Assembly: GCA_043801965.1 (NCBI GenBank)
Contig: JAZDLN010000022.1
Coordinates: forward strand, 9,989-73,988
Direction of reading: 5' to 3'
DNA length: 64,000 nt
From: Candidatus Falkowbacteria bacterium
GTDB taxonomy: Bacteria > Patescibacteriota > Patescibacteriia > Patescibacteriales > UBA12075
Below the pieces are notes generated by a model. The model did not search any database, was not told the origin of the DNA, and saw only the letters and a program-made list of their open reading frames with translations. Below, piece after piece: positions 7,931-61,108 of this stretch. How positions within the stretch are numbered: position 1 is the stretch's first letter; each line of letters opens with the position of its first letter. A program made the position numbers and the translations under genes.

Positions 7931-8009
7931 TCCGCCTATTAGCGGATCACTTAATTGCCCTCACCCGGTCCGCCGGTTGGCGGACCACCCTCTCCGATTC
8001 CGGAGAGGG
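7931..8009. repeat. Cluster of three GC-rich hairpins
   Basis: tccgc-ctatta-gcgga (7931-7946), ggtccgcc-ggtt-ggcggacc (7967-7986) and ccctctccg-attc-cggagaggg (7988-8009). None has a T-run. Confidence 0.7.
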
Positions 8010-8037
8010 GCTTGTATGATGGTAATATTTTTTAATC

Positions 8038-8066
8038 TTGACTTTTTTTTAATTTTGGTTTATAGT
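8038..8066 (+). promoter_or_regulatory. Promoter candidate for tRNA-Glu
   Basis: TTGACT (8038-8043), 17-nt spacer, TATAGT (8061-8066), 38 nt before the tRNA 5' end. Confidence 0.5.
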
Positions 8067-8104
8067 AATCTTAGTCCTGTTTTAAGGGCTTATTTTTAAA
8101 TCAC

Positions 8105-8176
8105 GGCGCCATCGTCTAGTGGTTAGGACATGAGGTTTTCATCCTCACAACCGGGGTTCTATTCCCCGTGGCGTCA
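8105..8176 (+). tRNA. tRNA-Glu (anticodon TTC)
   Basis: Hand-folded cloverleaf: acceptor ggcgcca/tggcgtc, anticodon arm tgagg-ttTTCat-cctca, T arm cgggg-ttctatt-ccccg. 72 nt, no encoded CCA. Confidence 0.9.
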
Positions 8177-8255
8177 CAATAAACAAAAAGCGGCCGTGGC
8201 CGTTTTTTGTTTCTTATTTACAAAATAACAAATGAATGCTATTTTTTTAATTACT

Positions 8256-8306
8256 ATGATTATATTAGGAATAGAGACCCCGTAGAAACGCTTCGCGTTC
8301 ACGGGG
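8256..8306 (+). other. Displaced copy of the tsaD 5' end followed by a GC hairpin
   Basis: atgattatattaggaatagagac (8256-8278) matches the tsaD start atgttaatactgggaatagagac (8362-8384) at 19/23 nt. It encodes MIILGIETP-stop versus MLILGIETSC. Hairpin ccccgt...acgggg at 8278-8306. Confidence 0.6.
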
Positions 8307-8361
8307 CGAGACTCAAATTTTTTTTGTTTAGTGTTTATATTTAAGTCTATATTTTAAGACC

Positions 8362-9402
8362 ATGTTAATACTGGGAATAGAGACAAGTTGCGATGAAACC
8401 GCCGCGGCCGTGGCCAGCGGAAAAAACGGTAAAGTGGAAATTTTATCAGACGTGGTTTCCTCGCAGATAGAAATACATAAAAAATACGGCGGCGTCGTAC
8501 CGGAGGTGGCCGCGCGCGAGCATGTCTTAAATATTTTGCCGGTCATTGATAAGGCTTTAAAAAAATCCGGAATCCCCACCCTTGCAAAAGGCGGGGGGGT
8601 TGACGCCATCGCCGTAACTATCGGACCGGGTTTGATCACGTCCCTGGTTGTGGGAATAGAAACCGCTAAAGTTTTGTCGTGCGCCTGGGGCGTGCCCGTT
8701 ATCGGGATTAACCACATAGAGGGGCATGTATACGCGAATTTCATAAATCAGAAAAAGAAGCTTGAATTTCCGGCCATGATTTTAACCGTGTCTGGCGGAC
8801 ACACCATGCTTGTCCTTATGCGCGCGCACGGCAAGTATAAAACGATCGGCGAAACGCGCGATGACGCGGCCGGAGAGGCGTTCGATAAAGCGGCGAAGCT
8901 TATGGGAATCGGCTACCCCGGCGGACCCGCTATAGCCGTTCAAGCCGTTAAATGTCAAATGTCAAAGGTCAAAGGTCAAATTAAACTGCCCAGACCAATG
9001 ATAAATTCCGGGGATTTTGATTTTTCTTTTTCCGGATTAAAAACAGCGCTCTTGTATGATTTAAAGAAGGATAAAAACTGGGAGAAGCGGATTCCGGAAT
9101 ACTGTCATGAATTCCAGCGGGCGGTAGTTGATACGCTGGTCTTTAAAACCGTTAAGGCGGCAGAAAAATATAAAGCGAAAACCGTCATGCTCGCCGGCGG
9201 GGTGGCGGCTAATACGGAATTGCGGACACAGCTTGAAAAAGCGGTCGCGGAAAAACTAAAAACAGCTTTCGTTATGCCGGATTTAAAGTACACAACGGAT
9301 AACGCGGCTATGGTCGCTTCAGCCGGATATTTCCGCGCGCTGAAAAAAGACTTTACGCCTTGGGAAAAATTGCGGGTAGATTGTAATTTAGAATTAAAGT
9401 AA
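8362..9402 (+). CDS. tsaD: tRNA N6-adenosine threonylcarbamoyltransferase TsaD (Kae1/Gcp family)
   Basis: 346 aa. LGIETSCDETAAA, GINHIEGH, GYPGGP and SFSGLKTA motifs. Confidence 0.95.
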   Translation: MLILGIETSCDETAAAVASGKNGKVEILSDVVSSQIEIHKKYGGVVPEVAAREHVLNILPVIDKALKKSGIPTLAKGGGVDAIAVTIGPGLITSLVVGIETAKVLSCAWGVPVIGINHIEGHVYANFINQKKKLEFPAMILTVSGGHTMLVLMRAHGKYKTIGETRDDAAGEAFDKAAKLMGIGYPGGPAIAVQAVKCQMSKVKGQIKLPRPMINSGDFDFSFSGLKTALLYDLKKDKNWEKRIPEYCHEFQRAVVDTLVFKTVKAAEKYKAKTVMLAGGVAANTELRTQLEKAVAEKLKTAFVMPDLKYTTDNAAMVASAGYFRALKKDFTPWEKLRVDCNLELK

Positions 9403-15821: not shown

Positions 15822-15903
15822 GCGGACGTGGTGAAACTGGTAGACACGCTAGCCTTAGGAGCTAGTGGAGAAATCCGTGTGGGTTCAAGTCCCTCCGTCC
15901 GCA
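15822..15903 (+). tRNA. tRNA-Leu (anticodon TAG)
   Basis: Class II cloverleaf: acceptor gcggacg/cgtccgc, anticodon arm ctagc-ctTAGga-gctag, long variable arm, T loop ttcaagt. Confidence 0.9.
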
Positions 15904-15925
15904 CTATTTTTTAAGTTGTGGGCTT

Positions 15926-15998
15926 CCGCTCAGCCCCGAGAATTCGGGATGAGCGGATCCGCTCGCGAAGCCGAGCGGACAAGTCCCTCCGTCCGCAC
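15926..15998 (+). repeat. Two GC hairpins followed by a 19-nt duplicate of the tRNA-Leu(TAG) 3' end
   Basis: ccgctca...tgagcgg (15926-15956), tccgctcg-cgaagc-cgagcgga (15958-15979), then caagtccctccgtccgcac (15980-15998), identical to 15886-15904. Confidence 0.8.
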
Positions 15999-16439: not shown

Positions 16440-17324
16440 ATGAATACTCGGGCCGGTTTAAGTAATTTAAGCAAGATTTATTGGCCGGAAGAGGGTTATA
16501 CGAAGGGGGACGTAATAGACTACTATGATCGGATCGCGGATTATATCCTGCCGTATTTGCGTTGCCGTCCGCAGAACCTTAGCCGCCACCCTAACGGAAT
16601 AAAGAAAAAAAGTTTTTTTCAAAAAGATGTCGGAAATTTACCTCCGGACTGGGTAGAGATCGCTAAAATTTATTCAGTATCAAATGAAAAATATATAAAT
16701 TATATGGTCTGCCGGGATAGGCCCACCCTGCTTTATATGGTCAATCTCGGCTGTATTGAATTCCACCCCTGGAATGCCAGACAGGATAACATCGAAAAAC
16801 CGGACTATGCGGTTATAGATCTTGATCCGGAAAAAATTAATTTCAAAGAAACCGTAAAAACAGCACTGGTCGTTAAGGATCTGCTTGACAGCATAAAAAT
16901 CAAATCTTTCTGCAAGACTTCCGGCGGAAGGGGTTTACACATCTTTATTCCTCTCGGCGCGAAATATCACTATAAGAGCGTCACGCAGTTTACGAAGCTT
17001 GTCGGTCACATTACCCGCAACTTACTTCCGGATATCGTCAGTCTGGAGAGGGTACATGGGCAGGGGCGGATATATTTTGATTATCAGCAGAATAACAAGG
17101 GACAAACAGTCGTCTCCGCCTACTCGCTTCGTCCTAAGCCGGGAGCCACTGTTTCCACTCCTTTGGATTGGTCGGAGGTTAAGACAGGCCTTGATCCAAA
17201 AAAATTTAACATAAAAACCATCTTTAGCCGCCTTGATCACCGAGGCGACCCCTGGCAGGGGATATTTGATCATTATACCGATATAGAAGGCGCTTTTTAT
17301 AGACTAAGAGAAAAATATCTTTAA
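16440..17324 (+). CDS. Stand-alone LigD-type primase-polymerase domain (NHEJ PolDom)
   Basis: 294 aa. LSNLSKIYWPEEGYTKGD, IEFHPW, IDLDP and KTSGGRGLHIFIPL motifs of LigD PolDom. Confidence 0.85.
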   Translation: MNTRAGLSNLSKIYWPEEGYTKGDVIDYYDRIADYILPYLRCRPQNLSRHPNGIKKKSFFQKDVGNLPPDWVEIAKIYSVSNEKYINYMVCRDRPTLLYMVNLGCIEFHPWNARQDNIEKPDYAVIDLDPEKINFKETVKTALVVKDLLDSIKIKSFCKTSGGRGLHIFIPLGAKYHYKSVTQFTKLVGHITRNLLPDIVSLERVHGQGRIYFDYQQNNKGQTVVSAYSLRPKPGATVSTPLDWSEVKTGLDPKKFNIKTIFSRLDHRGDPWQGIFDHYTDIEGAFYRLREKYL

Positions 17325-17421: not shown

Positions 17422-17904
17422 TTACCTGTTTTGGTAATATTTTTGATCGTTATTATTGTCTTGGCCGCGTCCATCGTTATTCCGGCCGTAATTGCCATTT
17501 CGCATCTGCCAGTCCTGCCGTTGCTCGCGCCAGGTTTGGCGCTGCTCTTTCCAGTCTTGTCGTAGTTCACGCCAGTTTTGACGTTGGTTTTGCCAGTCCT
17601 GCCGTTGCTTGTGCTGGTTTTTATCTTGCTTATGCCAGCCATCTCCTCTGTAATCATTTTGATTGCGATTATTTTGGCGACCCTGATCACCGCCTTGCTG
17701 ATTACCGCGTTGATTGCGCCAATCACCAGGAGTATTTTGGTGATAATATCTGGGCCTGTTTTCCGTGTAAGAGTAATTCGTTTTTTCGCCATAACCGCTT
17801 TGATCGCGCCAATCATAATCTTGGCTATAATTGTCGGCAATAACCGGCGAGCTCATAACGACCGCGAACATCACTACAAACAGAAATGTAAATAATCTAT
17901 TCAT
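17422..17904 (-). CDS. Secreted low-complexity Q/R/N/D/W-rich protein with RQxW heptad repeats
   Basis: GGAGG SD. Signal peptide MNRLFTFLFVVMFAVVMSSPVIA. The mature part lacks aliphatic residues. RQDWQNQ RQNWREL RQDWKEQ RQTWREQ RQDWQMR. Confidence 0.6.
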   Translation of the reverse strand: MNRLFTFLFVVMFAVVMSSPVIADNYSQDYDWRDQSGYGEKTNYSYTENRPRYYHQNTPGDWRNQRGNQQGGDQGRQNNRNQNDYRGDGWHKQDKNQHKQRQDWQNQRQNWRELRQDWKEQRQTWREQRQDWQMRNGNYGRNNDGRGQDNNNDQKYYQNR

Positions 17905-25622: not shown

Positions 25623-25671
25623 ATGCGTTATGCGTTATGCGTTATGCGTTATGCGTTATGCGTTATGCGTT
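25623..25671. repeat. Perfect heptanucleotide tandem repeat (ATGCGTT) x7
   Basis: Counted directly. Overlaps the last codons and stop of the ROK gene and extends into its 3' flank. Confidence 0.95.
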
Positions 25672-50391: not shown

Positions 50392-50793
50392 ATGAAAAAA
50401 ATATTATTCGTCTTAATTCCGATGATATTGGTTTTGTTGCCGGTTTTTTCTTTTGTCTTGACCGCCCACGCTCAATCCGAGGCTGACGTTATGCTTTGGG
50501 GCGGATTAGAGGGAGACGTCCAGGCCACTACCGGTTTAGGCAATACCGATCCGCGGGAAATGGCGGCCCGGGTGGTCAATATCATGTTGGGCTTTATCGG
50601 CATTATCGCCGTTATTATTATTTTATTGGGCGGATTCAAATGGATGACGGCCGCCGGCAACGAGGAGAAGGTGGATGAGGCTAAAAAACTCATCGGCTCC
50701 GGGGTGATCGGTTTGATAATATTATTGGCCGCTTTTGCGCTGGCCCAATTTATCCTGAACGCTCTTTACGGAGCTACCGGAGCTATCGGATAA
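50392..50793 (+). CDS. VirB2/TrbC-like pilin paralogue 1 (major-type)
   Basis: 133 aa. Signal peptide ...LTAHA/QS, GLGNTDPRE, GGFKWMTAAGNEEKVDEAKK between two TM helices. GGGGGTG SD. Confidence 0.8.
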   Translation: MKKILFVLIPMILVLLPVFSFVLTAHAQSEADVMLWGGLEGDVQATTGLGNTDPREMAARVVNIMLGFIGIIAVIIILLGGFKWMTAAGNEEKVDEAKKLIGSGVIGLIILLAAFALAQFILNALYGATGAIG

Positions 50794-50885
50794 TTTTAAA
50801 AGTGATATATATTTGACGAGGGAAAACCGGAAAAAAGCACCAGAAATCGGATATTTTTCCCAAGTCCATAGAAAGGGGGTGAAAT

Positions 50886-51287
50886 ATGAAAAAAATAATG
50901 TTCGTTTTAGCGATTTTTACTTTAACGGTATTACCGATCTTTTCTTTTTGTTTGACCGCTCACGCCCAGTCGGACGCCGACAATATGCTTTGGGGCAATT
51001 ATGAAACCAACGTCCAGGCAGCGACCGGATTAGGAAACACCGACCCCCGGCAGATGGCCGCTCAAGTCGTTAATATCATGTTGGGATTTTTGGGCATAAT
51101 AGCCGTAGTGATCATATTGTTGGGCGGATTCAAATGGATGACGGCCGCCGGAGACGAGGCGAAAGTTGATGAAGCCAAGAAATTGATCGGTGCCGGCGTT
51201 ATCGGCTTGGTCGTGATCTTAGCCGCGTTCGGAGTCGCCCAATTTGTTATCAACGCCTTATACGGAGCCACTGGCGCTACCGGTTAG
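50886..51287 (+). CDS. VirB2/TrbC-like pilin paralogue 2 (major-type)
   Basis: 133 aa, near-identical architecture to paralogue 1. GGGGGTG SD. Confidence 0.8.
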   Translation: MKKIMFVLAIFTLTVLPIFSFCLTAHAQSDADNMLWGNYETNVQAATGLGNTDPRQMAAQVVNIMLGFLGIIAVVIILLGGFKWMTAAGDEAKVDEAKKLIGAGVIGLVVILAAFGVAQFVINALYGATGATG

Positions 51288-51330
51288 TATTATATAATTA
51301 CCTGCTACAGCCTTTGATAAATCAGCGGAT

Positions 51331-51395
51331 GTCCGATTTAAAAAGCGGACTCCGCCGCCATAAACACGAAAGATGCATCGCGTTTATGGCGGCGG
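51331..51395 (+). promoter_or_regulatory. Conserved double RNA hairpin between pilin genes 2 and 3
   Basis: gtccg...cggac (51331-51350) and ccgccgccataaacacg-N10-cgcgtttatggcggcgg (51352-51395). No T-run. Confidence 0.55.
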
Positions 51396-51481
51396 AAACA
51401 AAAAGGAATTAGCGGTTTCTGTTTAAGGTTATAGTTAGCATTGATTTTATTTTTTATTATTCAATAGATTGGGGGTGAAAT

Positions 51482-51883
51482 ATGAAAAAAACTTTTTTCG
51501 TTTTAGCTTTATCCGTTTTGGTGATTTTGCCGGTTTTCGCTTTCGGTCTGACCGCTCACGCGCAAACAGCCGCCGACAACATGCTTTGGGGGGGCTTTGA
51601 GGGTAACGTACAGACCGCTACCGGTTTGGGTAATACCGACCCCAGAGAGATGGCTGGACAGGTGGTCAATATACTCTTAGGATTTTTAGGTATTATAGCG
51701 GTTGTGATCATACTTTTAGGCGGATTCAAGTGGATGACCGCGGCGGGAGACGAGGGCAAGGTTGATGAGGCCAAGAAGCTTATCGGCGCCGGTATTATCG
51801 GCCTGGTCGTTATTTTAGCGGCCTTCGCTATCGCCCAGTTCGTGATCAGCGCTTTGTACAACGCCACGAACGCCACCGGTTAA
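51482..51883 (+). CDS. VirB2/TrbC-like pilin paralogue 3 (major-type)
   Basis: 133 aa. C-terminus ALYNATNATG. GGGGGTG SD. Confidence 0.8.
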   Translation: MKKTFFVLALSVLVILPVFAFGLTAHAQTAADNMLWGGFEGNVQTATGLGNTDPREMAGQVVNILLGFLGIIAVVIILLGGFKWMTAAGDEGKVDEAKKLIGAGIIGLVVILAAFAIAQFVISALYNATNATG

Positions 51884-51909
51884 ATATTTATGTTATTCGA
51901 TCAGCGGGC

Positions 51910-51968
51910 GTCCGCTTTAAAGCGGACTCCGCCGCCATGAACACGATAATTCGCGTTTATGGCCGCAG
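51910..51968 (+). promoter_or_regulatory. Conserved double RNA hairpin between pilin genes 3 and 4
   Basis: Perfect palindrome gtccgctttaaagcggac (51910-51927) and ccgccgccatgaacacg...cgcgtttatggccgcag (51929-51968). Confidence 0.55.
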
Positions 51969-52031
51969 AAAGACCGTTAATCGGAGAGGTTAGTTTCTAA
52001 TTAATTGTTAATAAATAGATAGGGGGTGAAT

Positions 52032-52433
52032 ATGAAAAAAACATTTTTCGTTTTAGCGCTTTCAGCTCTGGTTATATTGCCGGTTTTCGCTTTCGGTCTG
52101 ACCGCTAACGCGCAATCAGCCGCCGACAACATGCTTTGGGGCGGTTTTGAATCTAACGTTCAGACGGCAACGGGTTTGGGGAATACCGACCCTAGGGAAA
52201 TGGCCGGTTCGGTAATTAATATATTTTTGGGATTCTTGGGTATCATTGCCGTATTATTGATCCTGTTCGGCGGTTTTAAATGGATGACGGCCGCCGGAGA
52301 CGAGGGCAAGGTTGACGAGGCTAAAAAGCTGATTGCCGCCGGTATTATCGGTTTGGTCGTTATTTTAGCGGCCTTCGCTATCGCCCAGTTCGTGATCAAC
52401 GCTTTGTACAACGCTACGAACGCCACGGGTTAA
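52032..52433 (+). CDS. VirB2/TrbC-like pilin paralogue 4 (major-type)
   Basis: ATG 52032 (MKKTFF) chosen by analogy with the paralogues and the GGGGGTG SD. Shares a 44-nt identical 3' stretch with paralogue 3. Confidence 0.8.
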   Translation: MKKTFFVLALSALVILPVFAFGLTANAQSAADNMLWGGFESNVQTATGLGNTDPREMAGSVINIFLGFLGIIAVLLILFGGFKWMTAAGDEGKVDEAKKLIAAGIIGLVVILAAFAIAQFVINALYNATNATG

Positions 52434-52475
52434 TCGTCTTTAGCAAAGATCTTTTACGTTTTTTTATACGTGGAT

Positions 52476-52545
52476 ACCCGGTTTTTCTAATCGGGTTCCA
52501 CTGTTATGGGCGTGAAGCAGATTCGCGTTCATGCCCGTAACAGTG
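52476..52545 (+). promoter_or_regulatory. Conserved double RNA hairpin between pilin genes 4 and 5
   Basis: acccg...cgggt (52476-52496) and cactgttatgggcgtgaa...ttcgcgttcatgcccgtaacagtg (52499-52545). The two imperfect positions are G-U wobbles only on the plus-strand RNA. Confidence 0.55.
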
Positions 52546-52566
52546 TTCTAATCATATAGATAATTT

Positions 52567-52953
52567 ATGTTTTCCGTTAAATCCCATTTTGTCGTATTTA
52601 TACTCTTAAGCCTGGTTTTCCTGGCGTTTATCCAGACGGTTTCCGCGGACGGAGGGAAAGAAGCCTTGGATGGCCTTAATATAACCGCCAAAGAAGGCTA
52701 CGGCACAGTACCGCGCGGTACGGTTTCGGCTACCATAGGCAAAATCGTCGGTTCGATACTTGCATTTACCGGTATTATCTTTTTTCTTTTAGTGATTTAC
52801 GGCGGTTTTACCTGGATGATGGCCAGGGGCAACGAGCAGGAAGTCGCAAAAGCGAAGAGTCTGATCGAACAGGCGGCCATTGGTCTTATTATAGTTTTAG
52901 CGGCTTACGCGCTTACCGCTTTTATAGGCCGGGCGCTAACCTCCCCGACCTAA
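52567..52953 (+). CDS. VirB2/TrbC-like pilin paralogue 5 (divergent)
   Basis: 128 aa. GGFTWMMARGNEQEVAKAK core. Unrelated mature N-terminus. No SD. Confidence 0.7.
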   Translation: MFSVKSHFVVFILLSLVFLAFIQTVSADGGKEALDGLNITAKEGYGTVPRGTVSATIGKIVGSILAFTGIIFFLLVIYGGFTWMMARGNEQEVAKAKSLIEQAAIGLIIVLAAYALTAFIGRALTSPT

Positions 52954-52987
52954 AAACGATCCGGATTTTGTCCGGCGGCAGTTTATT

Positions 52988-53392
52988 ATGAAATACGGCC
53001 AAATATTTTTTACAATATTTTTTTTCTTGTGGCTGCTGTCAGCGATTCCGGCGGTTAACGATTGTTCGGCGTATAGTTTTATGGATGAGAGCGGCATCAA
53101 GGAAACCGGACAGGCTACCGGCCATGCTTCCATAAGTCTGACCCAAAGATCCCCGGCACAGATGGTCGGAATGATAATCAAGGTTCTCTTGTCCTTTCTT
53201 GGGGTCGTTTTCCTTATAATAATGATCTACGCCGGTTATTCCTGGATGATAGCCCGGGGCAACGAGCAGGTCGCGGAAAAAGCTAAGGGCACGATCGTTA
53301 ACGCCACGATCGGCCTTATAATAATAATGCTCGCCTATGCCATAACCGTTTTTATCGGCGGGCAATTAGCCGGAAGCACCGCGGTCGGTTAG
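52988..53392 (+). CDS. VirB2/TrbC-like pilin paralogue 6 (divergent)
   Basis: 134 aa. AGYSWMIARGNEQVAEKAK core. No SD. Confidence 0.7.
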   Translation: MKYGQIFFTIFFFLWLLSAIPAVNDCSAYSFMDESGIKETGQATGHASISLTQRSPAQMVGMIIKVLLSFLGVVFLIIMIYAGYSWMIARGNEQVAEKAKGTIVNATIGLIIIMLAYAITVFIGGQLAGSTAVG

Positions 53393-53437
53393 TGATTTTT
53401 TAAAAAACCGGATATATAAAAAGCGAACGAATCACGT

Positions 53438-53845
53438 ATGATTAATCTTTTGAATATCAATAAGTTCATGATTACCGCGGTAATTTTGCTGGCGGTTTTT
53501 ATAGTTCCGTCCGCCGAAGCCGCAAATTTAGGCGATGCGTTTAAGCAACCCTTAAACGACGTGGCCGGATCAACGGGCGCCGGCTACAGAAGCGACGCGG
53601 ATCCGGCCGTACTTATAGGAAAGGTGGTCCAAGCCGCCTTATCTTTCGTGGGCGTAGTATTCCTAATATTGATGATCTATGCCGGATATACGTGGATGCT
53701 CGCCCGGGGCAACGAGCAGCAGGTGGATAAAGCCAAGAATCTGATCACGGCCGCTGTTATCGGCTTGATCATTGTCCTGGCCGCATACGCCATAAGTTAT
53801 TTCGTGTTAAGCCAGATCGGCGCGGAAACCATGCAGGAGGTTTGA
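53438..53845 (+). CDS. VirB2/TrbC-like pilin paralogue 7 (divergent)
   Basis: 135 aa. AGYTWMLARGNEQQVDKAK core. No SD. Confidence 0.7.
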   Translation: MINLLNINKFMITAVILLAVFIVPSAEAANLGDAFKQPLNDVAGSTGAGYRSDADPAVLIGKVVQAALSFVGVVFLILMIYAGYTWMLARGNEQQVDKAKNLITAAVIGLIIVLAAYAISYFVLSQIGAETMQEV

Positions 53846-53873
53846 TGTCCGAATAATATTTATACTTTGATCT

Positions 53874-54275
53874 ATGATGAATAAAATAAAAAAATATCGT
53901 CATTTGTTTTTTCTTTTTTTCTTATTGGCGGTATTGATCGTCCCCTATTTTGTTTTCGCCGCTACGCCGTTGGATAATCTTGAAAAAGTAGGAACCGAAG
54001 GCGCCGGTTACGCCCCCTATGAGGATGGAGAATATAATAATACCTTCATAACCGTGGTGGGCGTTATAATTAAGGCCTTTTTGGGCTTATTGGGCGTAAT
54101 ATTCATCGTATTGATCTTGTACGGCGGTTATAACTGGATGACCGCCGCCGGCGAAGAACAAAAAGTAACGAAAGCGAAAGACACTATCAGCCGGGCCCTT
54201 ATCGGCCTTTTGATAGTAGTCGGTTCATTCGCCATCTGGCAATTCATTTCCAACGCTATCATTTTAGAAATATGA
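53874..54275 (+). CDS. VirB2/TrbC-like pilin paralogue 8 (divergent)
   Basis: 133 aa. GGYNWMTAAGEEQKVTKAK core. No SD. Confidence 0.7.
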   Translation: MMNKIKKYRHLFFLFFLLAVLIVPYFVFAATPLDNLEKVGTEGAGYAPYEDGEYNNTFITVVGVIIKAFLGLLGVIFIVLILYGGYNWMTAAGEEQKVTKAKDTISRALIGLLIVVGSFAIWQFISNAIILEI

Positions 54276-54682
54276 TAATTAAGACCATAAAAAAAATATT
54301 CAGGTATGGATTAGGCGCCCTTTTCCTAATCCCCTTTTTCGGAGCTAGGGCCGCGCTGCTTACAGGAGATACCGCGGACAGGATAATAGGTGCCGGCGAT
54401 AGTCTGGGTACGGCGGCCGGTTTCGCTTCCGGCCAGAACCCGGGGAGCATTGTGGCCACGATAATTACAGGTTTTTTAAGCCTACTAGGCATTATATTTA
54501 TCGTGCTTATAATATACGGCGGCTATAGCTGGATGACGGCCGCCGGTGAGGAGCAAAAAGTAGAAAAAGCCAAAGACACGATCAAGCGCGCCGTAATAGG
54601 CCTGATCATAATAGTGGCCGCTTATTCGATCACTTACTTTGTTTTTACCGCCCTGGACGCCGCGATGAGCGGAAATCCCTAG
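54272..54682 (+). CDS. VirB2/TrbC-like pilin paralogue 9 (divergent)
   Basis: 136 aa. GGYSWMTAAGEEQKVEKAK core. 4-nt ATGA overlap with paralogue 8. Confidence 0.7.
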   Translation: MIIKTIKKIFRYGLGALFLIPFFGARAALLTGDTADRIIGAGDSLGTAAGFASGQNPGSIVATIITGFLSLLGIIFIVLIIYGGYSWMTAAGEEQKVEKAKDTIKRAVIGLIIIVAAYSITYFVFTALDAAMSGNP

Positions 54683-55535: not shown

Positions 55536-55701
55536 GGCCTGGTAGCCAAGCGGTAAGGCAATCCCGACGCTTCGGGACAAAACTGCCGCATATATAAGCT
55601 GATTTTAAGCACAATCATGGCCTGGTAGCCAAGCGGTAAGGCAATCCCGACGCTTCGGGACAAAACTGCCGCATATATAAGCTGATTTTAAGCACAATCA
55701 T
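55536..55701 (+). repeat. Two perfect 83-bp tandem units, each holding a tRNA-Cys 5' fragment, a 16-nt palindrome and an AT-rich spacer
   Basis: Units 55536-55618 and 55619-55701 are identical. Each has 26 nt matching the tRNA-Cys 5' end, TCCCGACGCTTCGGGA replacing cagtttg, then caaaactg matching the tRNA, then 33 nt of unrelated sequence. Confidence 0.95.
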
Positions 55702-55773
55702 GGCCTGGTAGCCAAGCGGTAAGGCAACAGTTTGCAAAACTGTCATGCACCGGTTCAAATCCGGTCCAGGCCT
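55702..55773 (+). tRNA. tRNA-Cys (anticodon GCA)
   Basis: Acceptor ggcctgg/ccaggcc, anticodon arm acagt-ttGCAaa-actgt, T arm accgg-ttcaaat-ccggt. 72 nt. Confidence 0.9.
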
Positions 55774-55784
55774 CAAATTAAATT

Positions 55785-60412: not shown

Positions 60413-60420
60413 CCCGTATG

Positions 60421-60499
60421 TGGACGCGCAATCCCGAAGCGTCGGGAGAACCTAGGACCCCCTCGGTGTAAATCCCGAAGCGTCGGGACTCTAACCAGC
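60421..60499 (-). pseudogene. Partial tRNA-Val copy (3' ~60 nt) with two 16-nt palindromes substituted
   Basis: Sense strand: gctggttagag[TCCCGACGCTTCGGGA]tttacaccgagggggtcctaggttc[TCCCGACGCTTCGGGA]ttgcgcgtcca. The palindromes replace cacctcg and gaatcc of the intact tRNA. Confidence 0.85.
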
Positions 60500-60751
60500 C
60501 GCTTTTGATCCGCACAATTTTTTATAAAATTTTTTGCTTTTCTGATTTTTTAAAAATTTTTCCTGAATCATGGCCTCTGACCTGGTGTCATATTTTTCTT
60601 GATAAACAAGATGCCATCCGCCGTTATATTTAGAAGTATAAACAGAAAGCCGGTTTTGGTGTTCAAAAATTCTTCTTCTTAAATTATCGGTTTGTCCAAT
60701 ATAAAATTTATCGTATTTTTTGTTGTACAAAATATAAACAAAAAATTTCAT
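60491..60751 (-). CDS. Small GIY-YIG nuclease-family protein (YhbQ/UPF0213-like)
   Basis: 86 aa. FVYILYN...KFYIGQTDNLRRRIFEH ... E (GIY-YIG, Arg, Glu pattern). The ATG lies 2 nt after the tRNA-Val 3' end. The last codons and stop lie inside the tRNA-Val remnant. Confidence 0.85.
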   Translation of the reverse strand: MKFFVYILYNKKYDKFYIGQTDNLRRRIFEHQNRLSVYTSKYNGGWHLVYQEKYDTRSEAMIQEKFLKNQKSKKFYKKLCGSKAAG

Positions 60752-60752
60752 G

Positions 60753-60826
60753 TGGACGCGCAAGGATTCGAACCTAGGACCCCCTCGGTGTAAACGAGGT
60801 GCTCTAACCAGCTGAGCTACGCGTCC
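60753..60826 (-). tRNA. tRNA-Val (anticodon TAC)
   Basis: Sense strand: ggacgcg ta gctc agctggtta gagc a cctcg ttTACac cgagg gggtc ctagg ttcgaat ccttg cgcgtcc a. One U-U mismatch in the T stem. Confidence 0.9.
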
Positions 60827-60992: not shown

Positions 60993-61098
60993 GGACTTGC
61001 CCCGTCATCCGACGGGGTCCGCCTCGGGCGGAAACCTTCACGAGGTTGCCCCATCCCGCCCTCCGGCGGGACGTGTTCAATTATTCCACCACGTCCGC
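60993..61098 (-). pseudogene. Degenerate tRNA-Leu(GAG) copy with GC hairpins replacing the anticodon arm and inserted in the T arm
   Basis: Sense strand: gcggacgtggtggaa..gaacacg [tcccgcc-ggag-ggcggga] tggggcaacctcgtgaaggtt [tccgcc-cga-ggcgga][ccccgtc-ggat-gacgggg] caagtcc. The 3' acceptor strand is missing. Confidence 0.75.
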
Positions 61099-61108
61099 TT
61101 TGTTTCGC

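Follow-up and report, generated by a model that had tools for sequence, protein, structure and literature searches.

Why would an essential tRNA-modification gene be preceded by a second copy of its own first codons? TsaD makes the universal tRNA modification N6-threonylcarbamoyladenosine (t6A) and is essential in small genomes, and in Candidatus Falkowbacteria bacterium (Patescibacteriota; GenBank assembly GCA_043801965.1) an intact tsaD gene lies just downstream of a fragment that repeats its first eight codons and then runs into a stop. The locus is part of a 64,000-nucleotide stretch of contig JAZDLN010000022.1 (positions 9,989 to 73,988; hereafter the window), an ordinary chromosomal stretch of Falkowbacteria-like Patescibacteria that encodes PNPase, PGI, TsaD, thymidine kinase, PPDK and TsaE, among others. 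We report that the window carries an insertion of about 106 bases at the tsaD start relative to close relatives, and that homologous cassettes occupy this very position in no fewer than four Falkowbacteria-like lineages.

The tsaD start (8362-8384, copy B, ATGTTAATACTGGGAATAGAGAC) and the upstream segment (8256-8278, copy A, ATGATTATATTAGGAATAGAGAC) are identical at 19 of 23 positions. All four mismatches are confined to two codons, two in each (ATT becomes TTA, exchanging Ile for Leu, and TTA becomes CTG, with Leu unchanged), and both changes are conservative, a pattern that fits two functional alleles rather than a decaying fresh duplicate. Copy A reads ATG ATT ATA TTA GGA ATA GAG ACC CCG TAG, or MIILGIETP and then a stop; its likeness to copy B ends at the ATG, and the 40 nt preceding each copy are unrelated. 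The first two C's of a GC hairpin, CCCCGT-AG-AAACGC-TTC-GCGTT-C-ACGGGG, are also the final two bases of copy A codon 8, and this hairpin is the sole structure retained in the centroid fold. Between it and the real ATG lie 55 nt of AT-rich sequence (8307-8361), with TATATT at 8336-8341 and 8348-8353. The 83 nt separating the two start copies contain no open reading frame (ORF), and no Shine-Dalgarno (SD) sequence precedes the ATG, which is ordinary here, as just 17 of the 53 window genes have an SD-like motif. An earlier sequence-only reading had described copy A, the hairpin, the AT-rich spacer and the missing SD, and all of these details hold (Table 1).

The closest relatives, at loci L001 and L161 (TsaD 82% and 84% identical in amino acid sequence, respectively), have a single tsaD start each; no strain-level relatives of the window were found, the nearest DNA being 82-84% identical at the amino acid level. 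L001 is syntenic with the window on both sides of tsaD. Window 8217-8279 matches L001 3962-4024 at 84%, spanning a promoter-like TTTACA-17-TATTTT and the single L001 start, and window 8359-11985 matches L001 3998-7610 at 84.5%; because both flanks align to the single-start region of L001, the window has about 106 extra bases. The L161 upstream sequence TTTAATTACT matches the copy A flank, and the L161 start matches copy B at 23 of 24 positions. Alignment of the tRNA-Glu/tsaD region in relatives, which the sequence-only reading had proposed, shows that about 106 nt have been inserted as a discrete block at the window tsaD start, compared with both L001 and L161. The upstream tRNA-Glu gene and its promoter are inverted relative to L001, with window 8038-8186 matching L001 3954-3796 on the opposite strand at 84%. 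This inversion (window 7940-8215 against L001 3796-3954) holds against most other relatives too, and three GC hairpins (~7940-8009) lie to the left of the window tRNA-Glu, where L001 carries a 106-amino-acid ORF.

Homologues of the cassette are present at the identical tsaD codon in L106 (with further strains and L108), L112 and L167, making four lineages with the window; L106/L108 and L112 are metagenome contigs with TsaD proteins about 62% identical to that of the window. All four share the same order: an eight-codon decoy start, the junction, a GC hairpin, GACTCAAA, an AT-rich spacer and the real ATG. Copy A encodes MIILGIETP in three lineages and MKILGIETP in L167, and the junction is GA(G/A)AC followed by CCCG across all four. 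The hairpin stem is CCCCG(Y)/(R)CGGGG with an invariant base, CCCCG/CGGGG; the linker and motif read C(G/A)(A/G)GACTCAAA, with GACTCAAA conserved at 8/8 positions in every lineage; and the spacer is 44 nt in the window and 42 nt in each of the other three. Between the window and L106, 25 of 32 hairpin positions are identical. Spacer identity among three deep cassette lineages is 0.51-0.67, compared with 0.52-0.60 for shuffled sequences; the L112 and L167 spacers match at 36 of 42 positions. Since these invariant parts have outlasted saturation of the spacer sequence, selection evidently acts on the hairpin base, on GACTCAAA and on the spacer length. The pattern CCC[CG]..[CG]GGG..GACTCAA, run against both strands of 161 sequences, matched the window (8278), L106/L108 (2920) and L112 (130) alone, with L167 found later, and the hairpin-plus-GACTCAAA module has no second site in the window and none elsewhere in the ~170 loci. 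The sequence-only reading would have been undone by relatives that lack the fragment; three other lineages carry it, though the closest relatives do not.

Might the arrangement nonetheless be a neutral accident without function, whether a coincidental match, a single duplication event or a misassembly? AT-rich starts produce many partial matches, 17/23 arises by chance, and metagenome-assembled genomes (MAGs) may hold collapsed or chimeric repeats. However, in a control that set the first 23 nt of each of 909 ORFs against 300-nt non-cognate upstream regions, the maximum was 18/23, seen three times, and 19/23 was reached in none of the 4,481 comparisons, so the duplication is not of the chance frequency that the sequence-only reading had named as grounds for abandoning it. 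In comparisons of ORF starts with their own upstream sequence, 19 was reached by the tsaD carriers and one GC-repeat element (L027) alone. At the peptide level, the same 1.1 Mb contains upstream-repeated starts just at tsaD (in the window, L106/L108 and L112) and, in L018, one internal repeat; an out-of-frame control gave 0. Six contigs from as many samples carry the L106-type cassette without a single difference over 400 nt, which excludes an assembly artefact; the same architecture and motif recur in four lineages from independent projects; and the invariant parts persist despite the saturated spacer. An accident is thus scarcely credible, and is refuted in practice by the control comparisons, the four-lineage recurrence and the six-sample identity. 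The further proposal that such cassettes insert at gene 5' ends generally was not borne out, as tsaD stands alone among the 909 ORF starts.

Table 1. Features of the tsaD start region (window coordinates) and of a tRNA-Glu-associated element in related loci
Feature	Position	Strand	Basis or remark
tRNA-Glu(UUC), co-directional upstream neighbour	8105..8177	+	ARAGORN, Rfam
Canonical intrinsic terminator of tRNA-Glu, AAAAAGCGGCCGTGGCCGTTTTTTG	8181..8212	+	Terminator scan
Native tsaD promoter-like site, TTTACA-17-TATTTT with TG	8217..8245	+	Promoter scan; orthologous to L001 sequence directly 5' of its single tsaD start
Displaced start, copy A: eight tsaD codons, Pro and stop (MIILGIETP-stop)	8256..8285	+	5' flank homologous to L001 and L161 native upstream region
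GC hairpin, outer stem CCCCGT/ACGGGG (begins in copy A codon 8), inner stem AAACGC/GCGTT	8278..8306	+	Fold
Conserved single-stranded motif CGAGACTCAAA, containing GACTCAAA at 8310-8317	8307..8317	+	8/8 in four cassette lineages; unique in window
AT-rich spacer, 44 nt, sequence unconserved	8318..8361	+	Lineage comparison
Promoter-like reading in spacer: TTGTTT, 18 nt, TATATT, 8 nt, ATG	8324-8329 and 8348-8353	+	By eye, 8/12, under scan threshold
Intact tsaD, 346 amino acids, MFH0891764.1, with copy B start at 8362-8384	8362..9402	+	Pfam TsaD domains
GC-rich element of ~170 nt at tRNA-Glu	L005 95-290, L037 3600-3800, L041 3515-3715, L044 3560-3755, L050 3565-3765, L042 3318-3625	minus	

Which of the two starts is native can be read from L167 and its relatives. 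In the non-carriers L170 and L034, tsaD starts 1 nt after the parE stop (...ttataaataatATGACAATA...), and L167 copy A occupies exactly this place, matching the L170 start at 21 of 24 positions. L167 copy B (ATGCTAGTT...) matches the L170 start at 16 of 24 positions and L112 copy B at 21 of 24. By place and likeness, the native start has been displaced and a new start arrived with the insert, which bears out the idea of a displaced native 5' fragment plus a replacement start. Copy A of the window is attached to a native-like promoter, which argues for the same direction of displacement. The near-identity of window copy B to the L161 start would also fit loss of a cassette from L161 by recombination between copies A and B.

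We propose, tentatively and with slightly less than even confidence, that a compact cassette has replaced the 5' end of tsaD and acts as a self-contained expression module that is passed on and lost by recombination. About 106 bases would have entered after tsaD codon 8, leaving the native promoter and first eight codons behind as a dead-end nine-codon ORF that runs into the GC hairpin, and the insert would bring the invariant GACTCAAA, an AT-rich spacer whose length stays at 42-44 nt, and a version of the first eight codons that continues in frame into the rest of tsaD. Together, the hairpin and the nine-codon ORF would uncouple tsaD from the upstream unit, that is, from tRNA-Glu read-through in the window and L112 and from the parE toxin operon in L167; three of the four carriers do have a co-directional unit directly upstream, namely parE in L167 and, in the window and L112, tRNA-Glu followed by its terminator. 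The spacer would serve as a promoter giving a leaderless or near-leaderless tsaD mRNA, and each spacer has, by eye, a -10-like hexamer ending 4-9 nt 5' of the ATG, a leaderless geometry but a weak signal in such AT-rich sequence. The cassette would move between lineages by recombination without an enzyme of its own, with the conserved gene body and the 23-nt start repeat as homology arms, and would be removed again by recombination between the two start copies.

Several observations weigh against such an expression module. The terminator scan found no U-tract after the hairpin on the + strand of the window, L106, L112 or L167 (the T-run in the window begins 11 nt past the hairpin stem), so the hairpin is not a canonical intrinsic terminator; the one terminator-like call at the hairpin is in L167, on the minus strand. 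None of the four spacers contains a + strand promoter at the scan threshold of at least 9/12. Support for the hairpin comes from its invariance rather than from covariation: a single pair covaries (U-A to C-G), and 127 of 500 shuffles reach the same score. (MAFFT misaligns the short L112 hairpin.) The model also leaves the invariance of GACTCAAA without explanation. The first 70 tsaD codons of the carriers show no excess similarity (z -1.7 to +0.5) and no trace of a co-transferred flank. The distribution is patchy, which speaks for the proposed cassette, with carriers in four lineages among ~140 distinct tsaD genes and nearer non-carriers for each (L001 and L161 for the window; L005, L037 and L100 for L106; L034 and L170 for L167); yet it reflects either several gains or many losses, and gain is inseparable from ancient presence with losses, which we infer would occur easily through the 23-nt repeats. 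Finally, L106 has 97 additional bases 5' of copy A compared with L005, L037 and L100, where a simple model predicts none.

At the site of these extra bases L005, L037 and L100 have the boundary 'tagtcaa' in common, and L100 carries a different hairpin cassette at that boundary, without copy A; the two additions together mark the tsaD start as an insertion hot spot. A conserved sequence, ATG(G/T)TAATACTAA(G/A)A(A/T)TA(G/T), lies about 48 nt 5' of tsaD in L005, L037, L100, L106 (~2808-2826), L163 and L165. This upstream sequence (ATGGTAATACTAAGAATAG) resembles an MLIL-type tsaD start, and some gene callers begin TsaD there (P0022, P0072); in this clade it could be an older displaced start, or a chance or promoter sequence.

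The idea of an insulator-plus-promoter cassette, as first put forward in the sequence-only reading, thus stands in part. The insertion and its layout recur at the same codon in three further lineages; the insulator and promoter roles stay putative, and the hairpin is not a canonical terminator.

The conserved parts could instead belong to a cis-regulatory leader. Copy A would then be a translated upstream ORF (uORF), and tsaD expression would be tuned by this translation in concert with the hairpin and the GACUCAAA motif, in an arrangement that is ancient, vertically inherited and often lost by recombination between copies A and B; a speculative variant notes that five of the nine uORF codons are ANN, the decoding of which depends on the t6A made by TsaD. 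Invariant parts kept beside a saturated spacer imply purifying selection, and deep-lineage conservation of copy A (17-21/23) at least equals that of the functional copy B (16-20/24). Moreover, the six variable positions of copy A in the window, L106 and L112 are all synonymous, the native promoter 5' of copy A remains 84% identical to L001, and the distance from motif to ATG is constant at 42-44 nt. However, the uORF stop shifts from codon 10 in the window to codon 12 in L112, 29 in L106 and 35 in L167, and copy A of L112 begins 12 nt past the tRNA-Glu terminator, leaving no space for a promoter. Folds give one conserved hairpin with neither a U-tract nor an alternative terminator/antiterminator pairing, no Rfam covariance model matches (the best scores 20 bits against a gathering score of 54), and the small number of carrier lineages, each with close non-carrier relatives, also counts against it. 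The trp and his leader-peptide attenuators likewise have a short ORF directly 5' of the gene that runs into a hairpin, but here no alternative pairing was found, a U-tract and a conserved stop are absent, and the ORF copies the gene's own start. On balance we consider a regulatory leader unlikely.

Of three other regulatory readings, two were rejected. A palindromic operator for a dimeric regulator is at odds with arm spacings of 17, 14, 9 and 9 nt, and an anticodon-arm mimic for TsaD autoregulation with loops of 3-9 nt that, by eye, have no U33...U36A37A38 pattern. The third, an antisense RNA that would start in the spacer and cross copy A, found no support: L112 alone has a promoter-like site on the minus strand (10/12), L167 alone has a terminator-like call on that strand, and copies A and B show no within-genome co-variation.

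Another alternative is that the cassette is an enzyme-less miniature, or scar, of a site-specific element targeting tsaD codon 8, such as a dusA-type tyrosine-integrase island or a GIY-YIG homing element. The start copies would be attL/attR cores or homology arms, and the hairpin with GACTCAAA a protein-binding end, and the element would be mobilized in trans or immobile. The AC-CCCG insertion point is identical in four lineages, each with its lineage-specific native copy A, and the insert is conserved at one end and variable inside, as transposons or att arms are. Yet no full-length version is present at tsaD in the ~170 loci, no integrase was found among the window ORFs tested, none of the window ORFs neighbouring the cassette has a recombinase domain, and the cassette has no associated transposase, integrase or nuclease. 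The identical tiny size of the insert core (83 nt) in four lineages also argues against random deletion remnants. We judge a miniature site-specific element improbable.

The closest analogue is nevertheless the islands at the 5' end of dusA, by comparison with which the tsaD cassette would be an end-replacing insertion in a conserved gene, with a putative function. DusA-associated tyrosine integrases place islands or prophages of tens of kilobases in the dusA 5' end, with the integrase beside the att site, and the insertion replaces the 5' end of this tRNA-modification gene, supplying new sequence and a promoter (PMC4482086). As at dusA, the insertion hits the opening codons of a conserved gene for tRNA modification, a remnant of the native 5' end stays behind, and the insert brings a replacement 5' end and promoter-like sequence between short direct repeats of the target; flanking repeats (19/23) and a replaced 5' end (L167 compared with L170) are both present. 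Unlike those islands, the tsaD insert is ~106 nt long and gene-less, with a conserved hairpin and GACTCAAA on the remnant side, and the 83 nt between the copies have no room for an integrase, containing no ORF at all.

Homology-facilitated illegitimate recombination and the displacement of type VI secretion system effectors offer a second comparison, in that an incoming allele displaces a gene end (PMC3240628; PMC5361080). There, one-sided homology reportedly leaves a remnant of the resident gene beside the new copy, as here; such junctions are one-off and arbitrary in position, whereas the tsaD junction is nucleotide-identical in four lineages and leads into conserved sequence.

A link to GIY-YIG elements comes from tRNA genes. 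Integrative elements leave att duplications of tRNA genes, and tRNA gene fragments occur in prokaryotic genomes. Partial duplications within 600 nt are present at 15 of the 81 tRNA genes examined. The claim that tRNA-Cys and tRNA-Leu(GAG) have the same layout as tsaD proved right in form, and it extends to tRNA-Leu(TAG) and tRNA-Val. Upstream of tRNA-Cys (window 55536-55774) are two perfectly identical 83-nt tandem units. Each opens with tRNA positions 1-26; the hairpin TCCCGACGCTTCGGGA then stands where the 5' strand of the anticodon stem would be, and a decayed continuation of the anticodon loop leads into ~27 nt that are AT-rich. On the minus strand of window 60420-60826, a GIY-YIG gene (60491-60751; Pfam E 1.3e-13) comes directly after tRNA-Val, and a tRNA-Val 3' fragment comes after the gene; within this fragment two segments, the 5' strand of the anticodon stem and part of the T-loop, have given way to TCCCGACGCTTCGGGA (60430-60447 and 60471-60488). 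The arrangement is mirrored at tRNA-Glu in L008 (3420-3830), where the GIY-YIG gene lies between a hairpin-capped tRNA-Glu fragment and tRNA-Glu. The tRNA-Leu(GAG) pseudo-copy upstream of the intact gene (60995-61105, minus strand) keeps the acceptor/D region and variable arm, and three GC hairpins, one of them CCCCGTC-GGAT-GACGGGG, replace or interrupt the remainder. A second copy of the final 19 nt of tRNA-Leu(TAG) (window 15886-15998) lies 94 nt further downstream, preceded by two GC hairpins. Beyond these four window cases, 11 tRNA genes of relatives carry such duplications. The gene that follows tRNA-Leu(TAG) (16440-17324) encodes a LigD primase-polymerase domain protein (Pfam E 7.6e-86), and a LigD-type end-joining enzyme at this place could matter for illegitimate junctions.

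As with att duplications, a partial copy of the target lies beside an intact one; here, however, the gap between fragment and gene is just 70-350 nt, the truncated end is capped or interrupted by GC hairpins, and in the tsaD case the target is a protein-coding gene. Phage T4 SegB is reportedly encoded by a free-standing GIY-YIG homing endonuclease gene near tRNA genes, and the GIY-YIG genes within the tRNA-Val and tRNA-Glu duplications resemble it in this respect; copies A and B also differ by the sort of silent recoding that would shield a target site. Unlike SegB, no tsaD cassette includes a nuclease gene: searching all ORFs of the ~170 loci by phmmer with both GIY-YIG proteins returned none at tsaD, with matches at window 60491-60751 and L008 3475-3735, so that the whole set has just two GIY-YIG genes, both at tRNA genes. 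By eye, the tsaD and tRNA hairpins have the 8-mer ACGCTTCG in common; beyond it the tsaD hairpin differs from TCCCGACGCTTCGGGA, and GACTCAAA is absent from the tRNA hairpins. On account of these differences a common tsaD/tRNA mechanism is a hypothesis, not a result. In its broadest form, Falkowbacteria-type Patescibacteria would carry tiny end-replacement elements, composed of GC hairpins, a promoter or terminator spacer and a recoded target end, in tRNA genes and tsaD; the gene would stay intact, with its native end left behind and hairpin-capped, and the GIY-YIG versions at tRNA-Val and L008 tRNA-Glu would be autonomous and the gene-less ones, including the tsaD cassette with an GACTCAAA end of its own, non-autonomous derivatives. 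We think this doubtful.

Other origins were also considered. The single GC hairpin and 23-nt flanking repeat do not match IS200/IS605 elements or palindrome-associated transposable elements, which have subterminal hairpins at both ends and no target duplication, and no genome-wide search for tnpA was made; the hairpin plus 10 nt ending in TCAA may resemble the right end of IS608. BLAST-short searches of the 83-nt insert against the window and 160 loci gave nothing beyond AT-rich 10-17-mers. A viral-contig source was rejected, as the one hairpin-motif match was in GC-rich coding DNA of unrelated context, and so was derivation of the motif from the tsaD 3' end by tandem duplication with internal deletion, as the 3' ends read AATTTAGAATTAAAGTAA, not GACTCAAA. 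With regard to a foreign 5' tract, the window shows a mosaic of sliding identity to L161 and L001, and in a regression over 9,453 gene pairs L001 is the outlier, not the window, and the carriers do not cluster in their 5' 70 codons.

GC-rich palindromic sequences occur elsewhere in these loci. Insertions of this kind lie at or just past the tsaD 3' end in L106 (4150-4263), L108, L100, L037 and L112 (1303-1400), and some lengthen the reading frame (...NLELSARG-stop, ...PPLPPRRDWRGRGN-stop). A recurrent intergenic GC hairpin, GGATTCCCGC..GCGGGAATGACA, is present in L027 (4690-4870), in L161 (1-30) and upstream of tsaD in L018, and across Patescibacteria contigs it may represent a dispersed palindromic repeat family. 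A GC-rich element of ~170 nt downstream of tRNA-Glu is closed by GGGGAAU/AUUCCCC, with its 3' strand within a repeated 17-nt tRNA 3' end; it has compensatory changes at 15 of 32 predicted pairs and no Rfam match, and its candidate identities are a structured RNA and a miniature integrative element. The window itself also has nine tandem paralogous genes of ~133 amino acids (50392-54682), the first of which matches a type IV secretion pilin family (PF18895, E 1e-9); a 21-nt periodic repeat of five overlapping copies (17507-17645) within overlapping ORFs without a Pfam match; and a perfect (ATGCGTT)n tandem array (25623-25671).

Whichever reading applies, decoy starts and fragments joined to hairpins are to be expected when these MAGs are annotated. 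If the regulatory leader were real, it would be the first cis-regulator proposed for tsaD. An insert that cuts the first codons of tsaD and yet leaves the gene intact is a compact rewiring, or invasion, of an essential gene without splicing, and if end-replacement elements of this kind exist, they would invade essential genes without an intron or intein. If the link to tRNA duplications and GIY-YIG genes is true, it would amount to a new mobile-element strategy in the Candidate Phyla Radiation and would explain many tRNA fragments.

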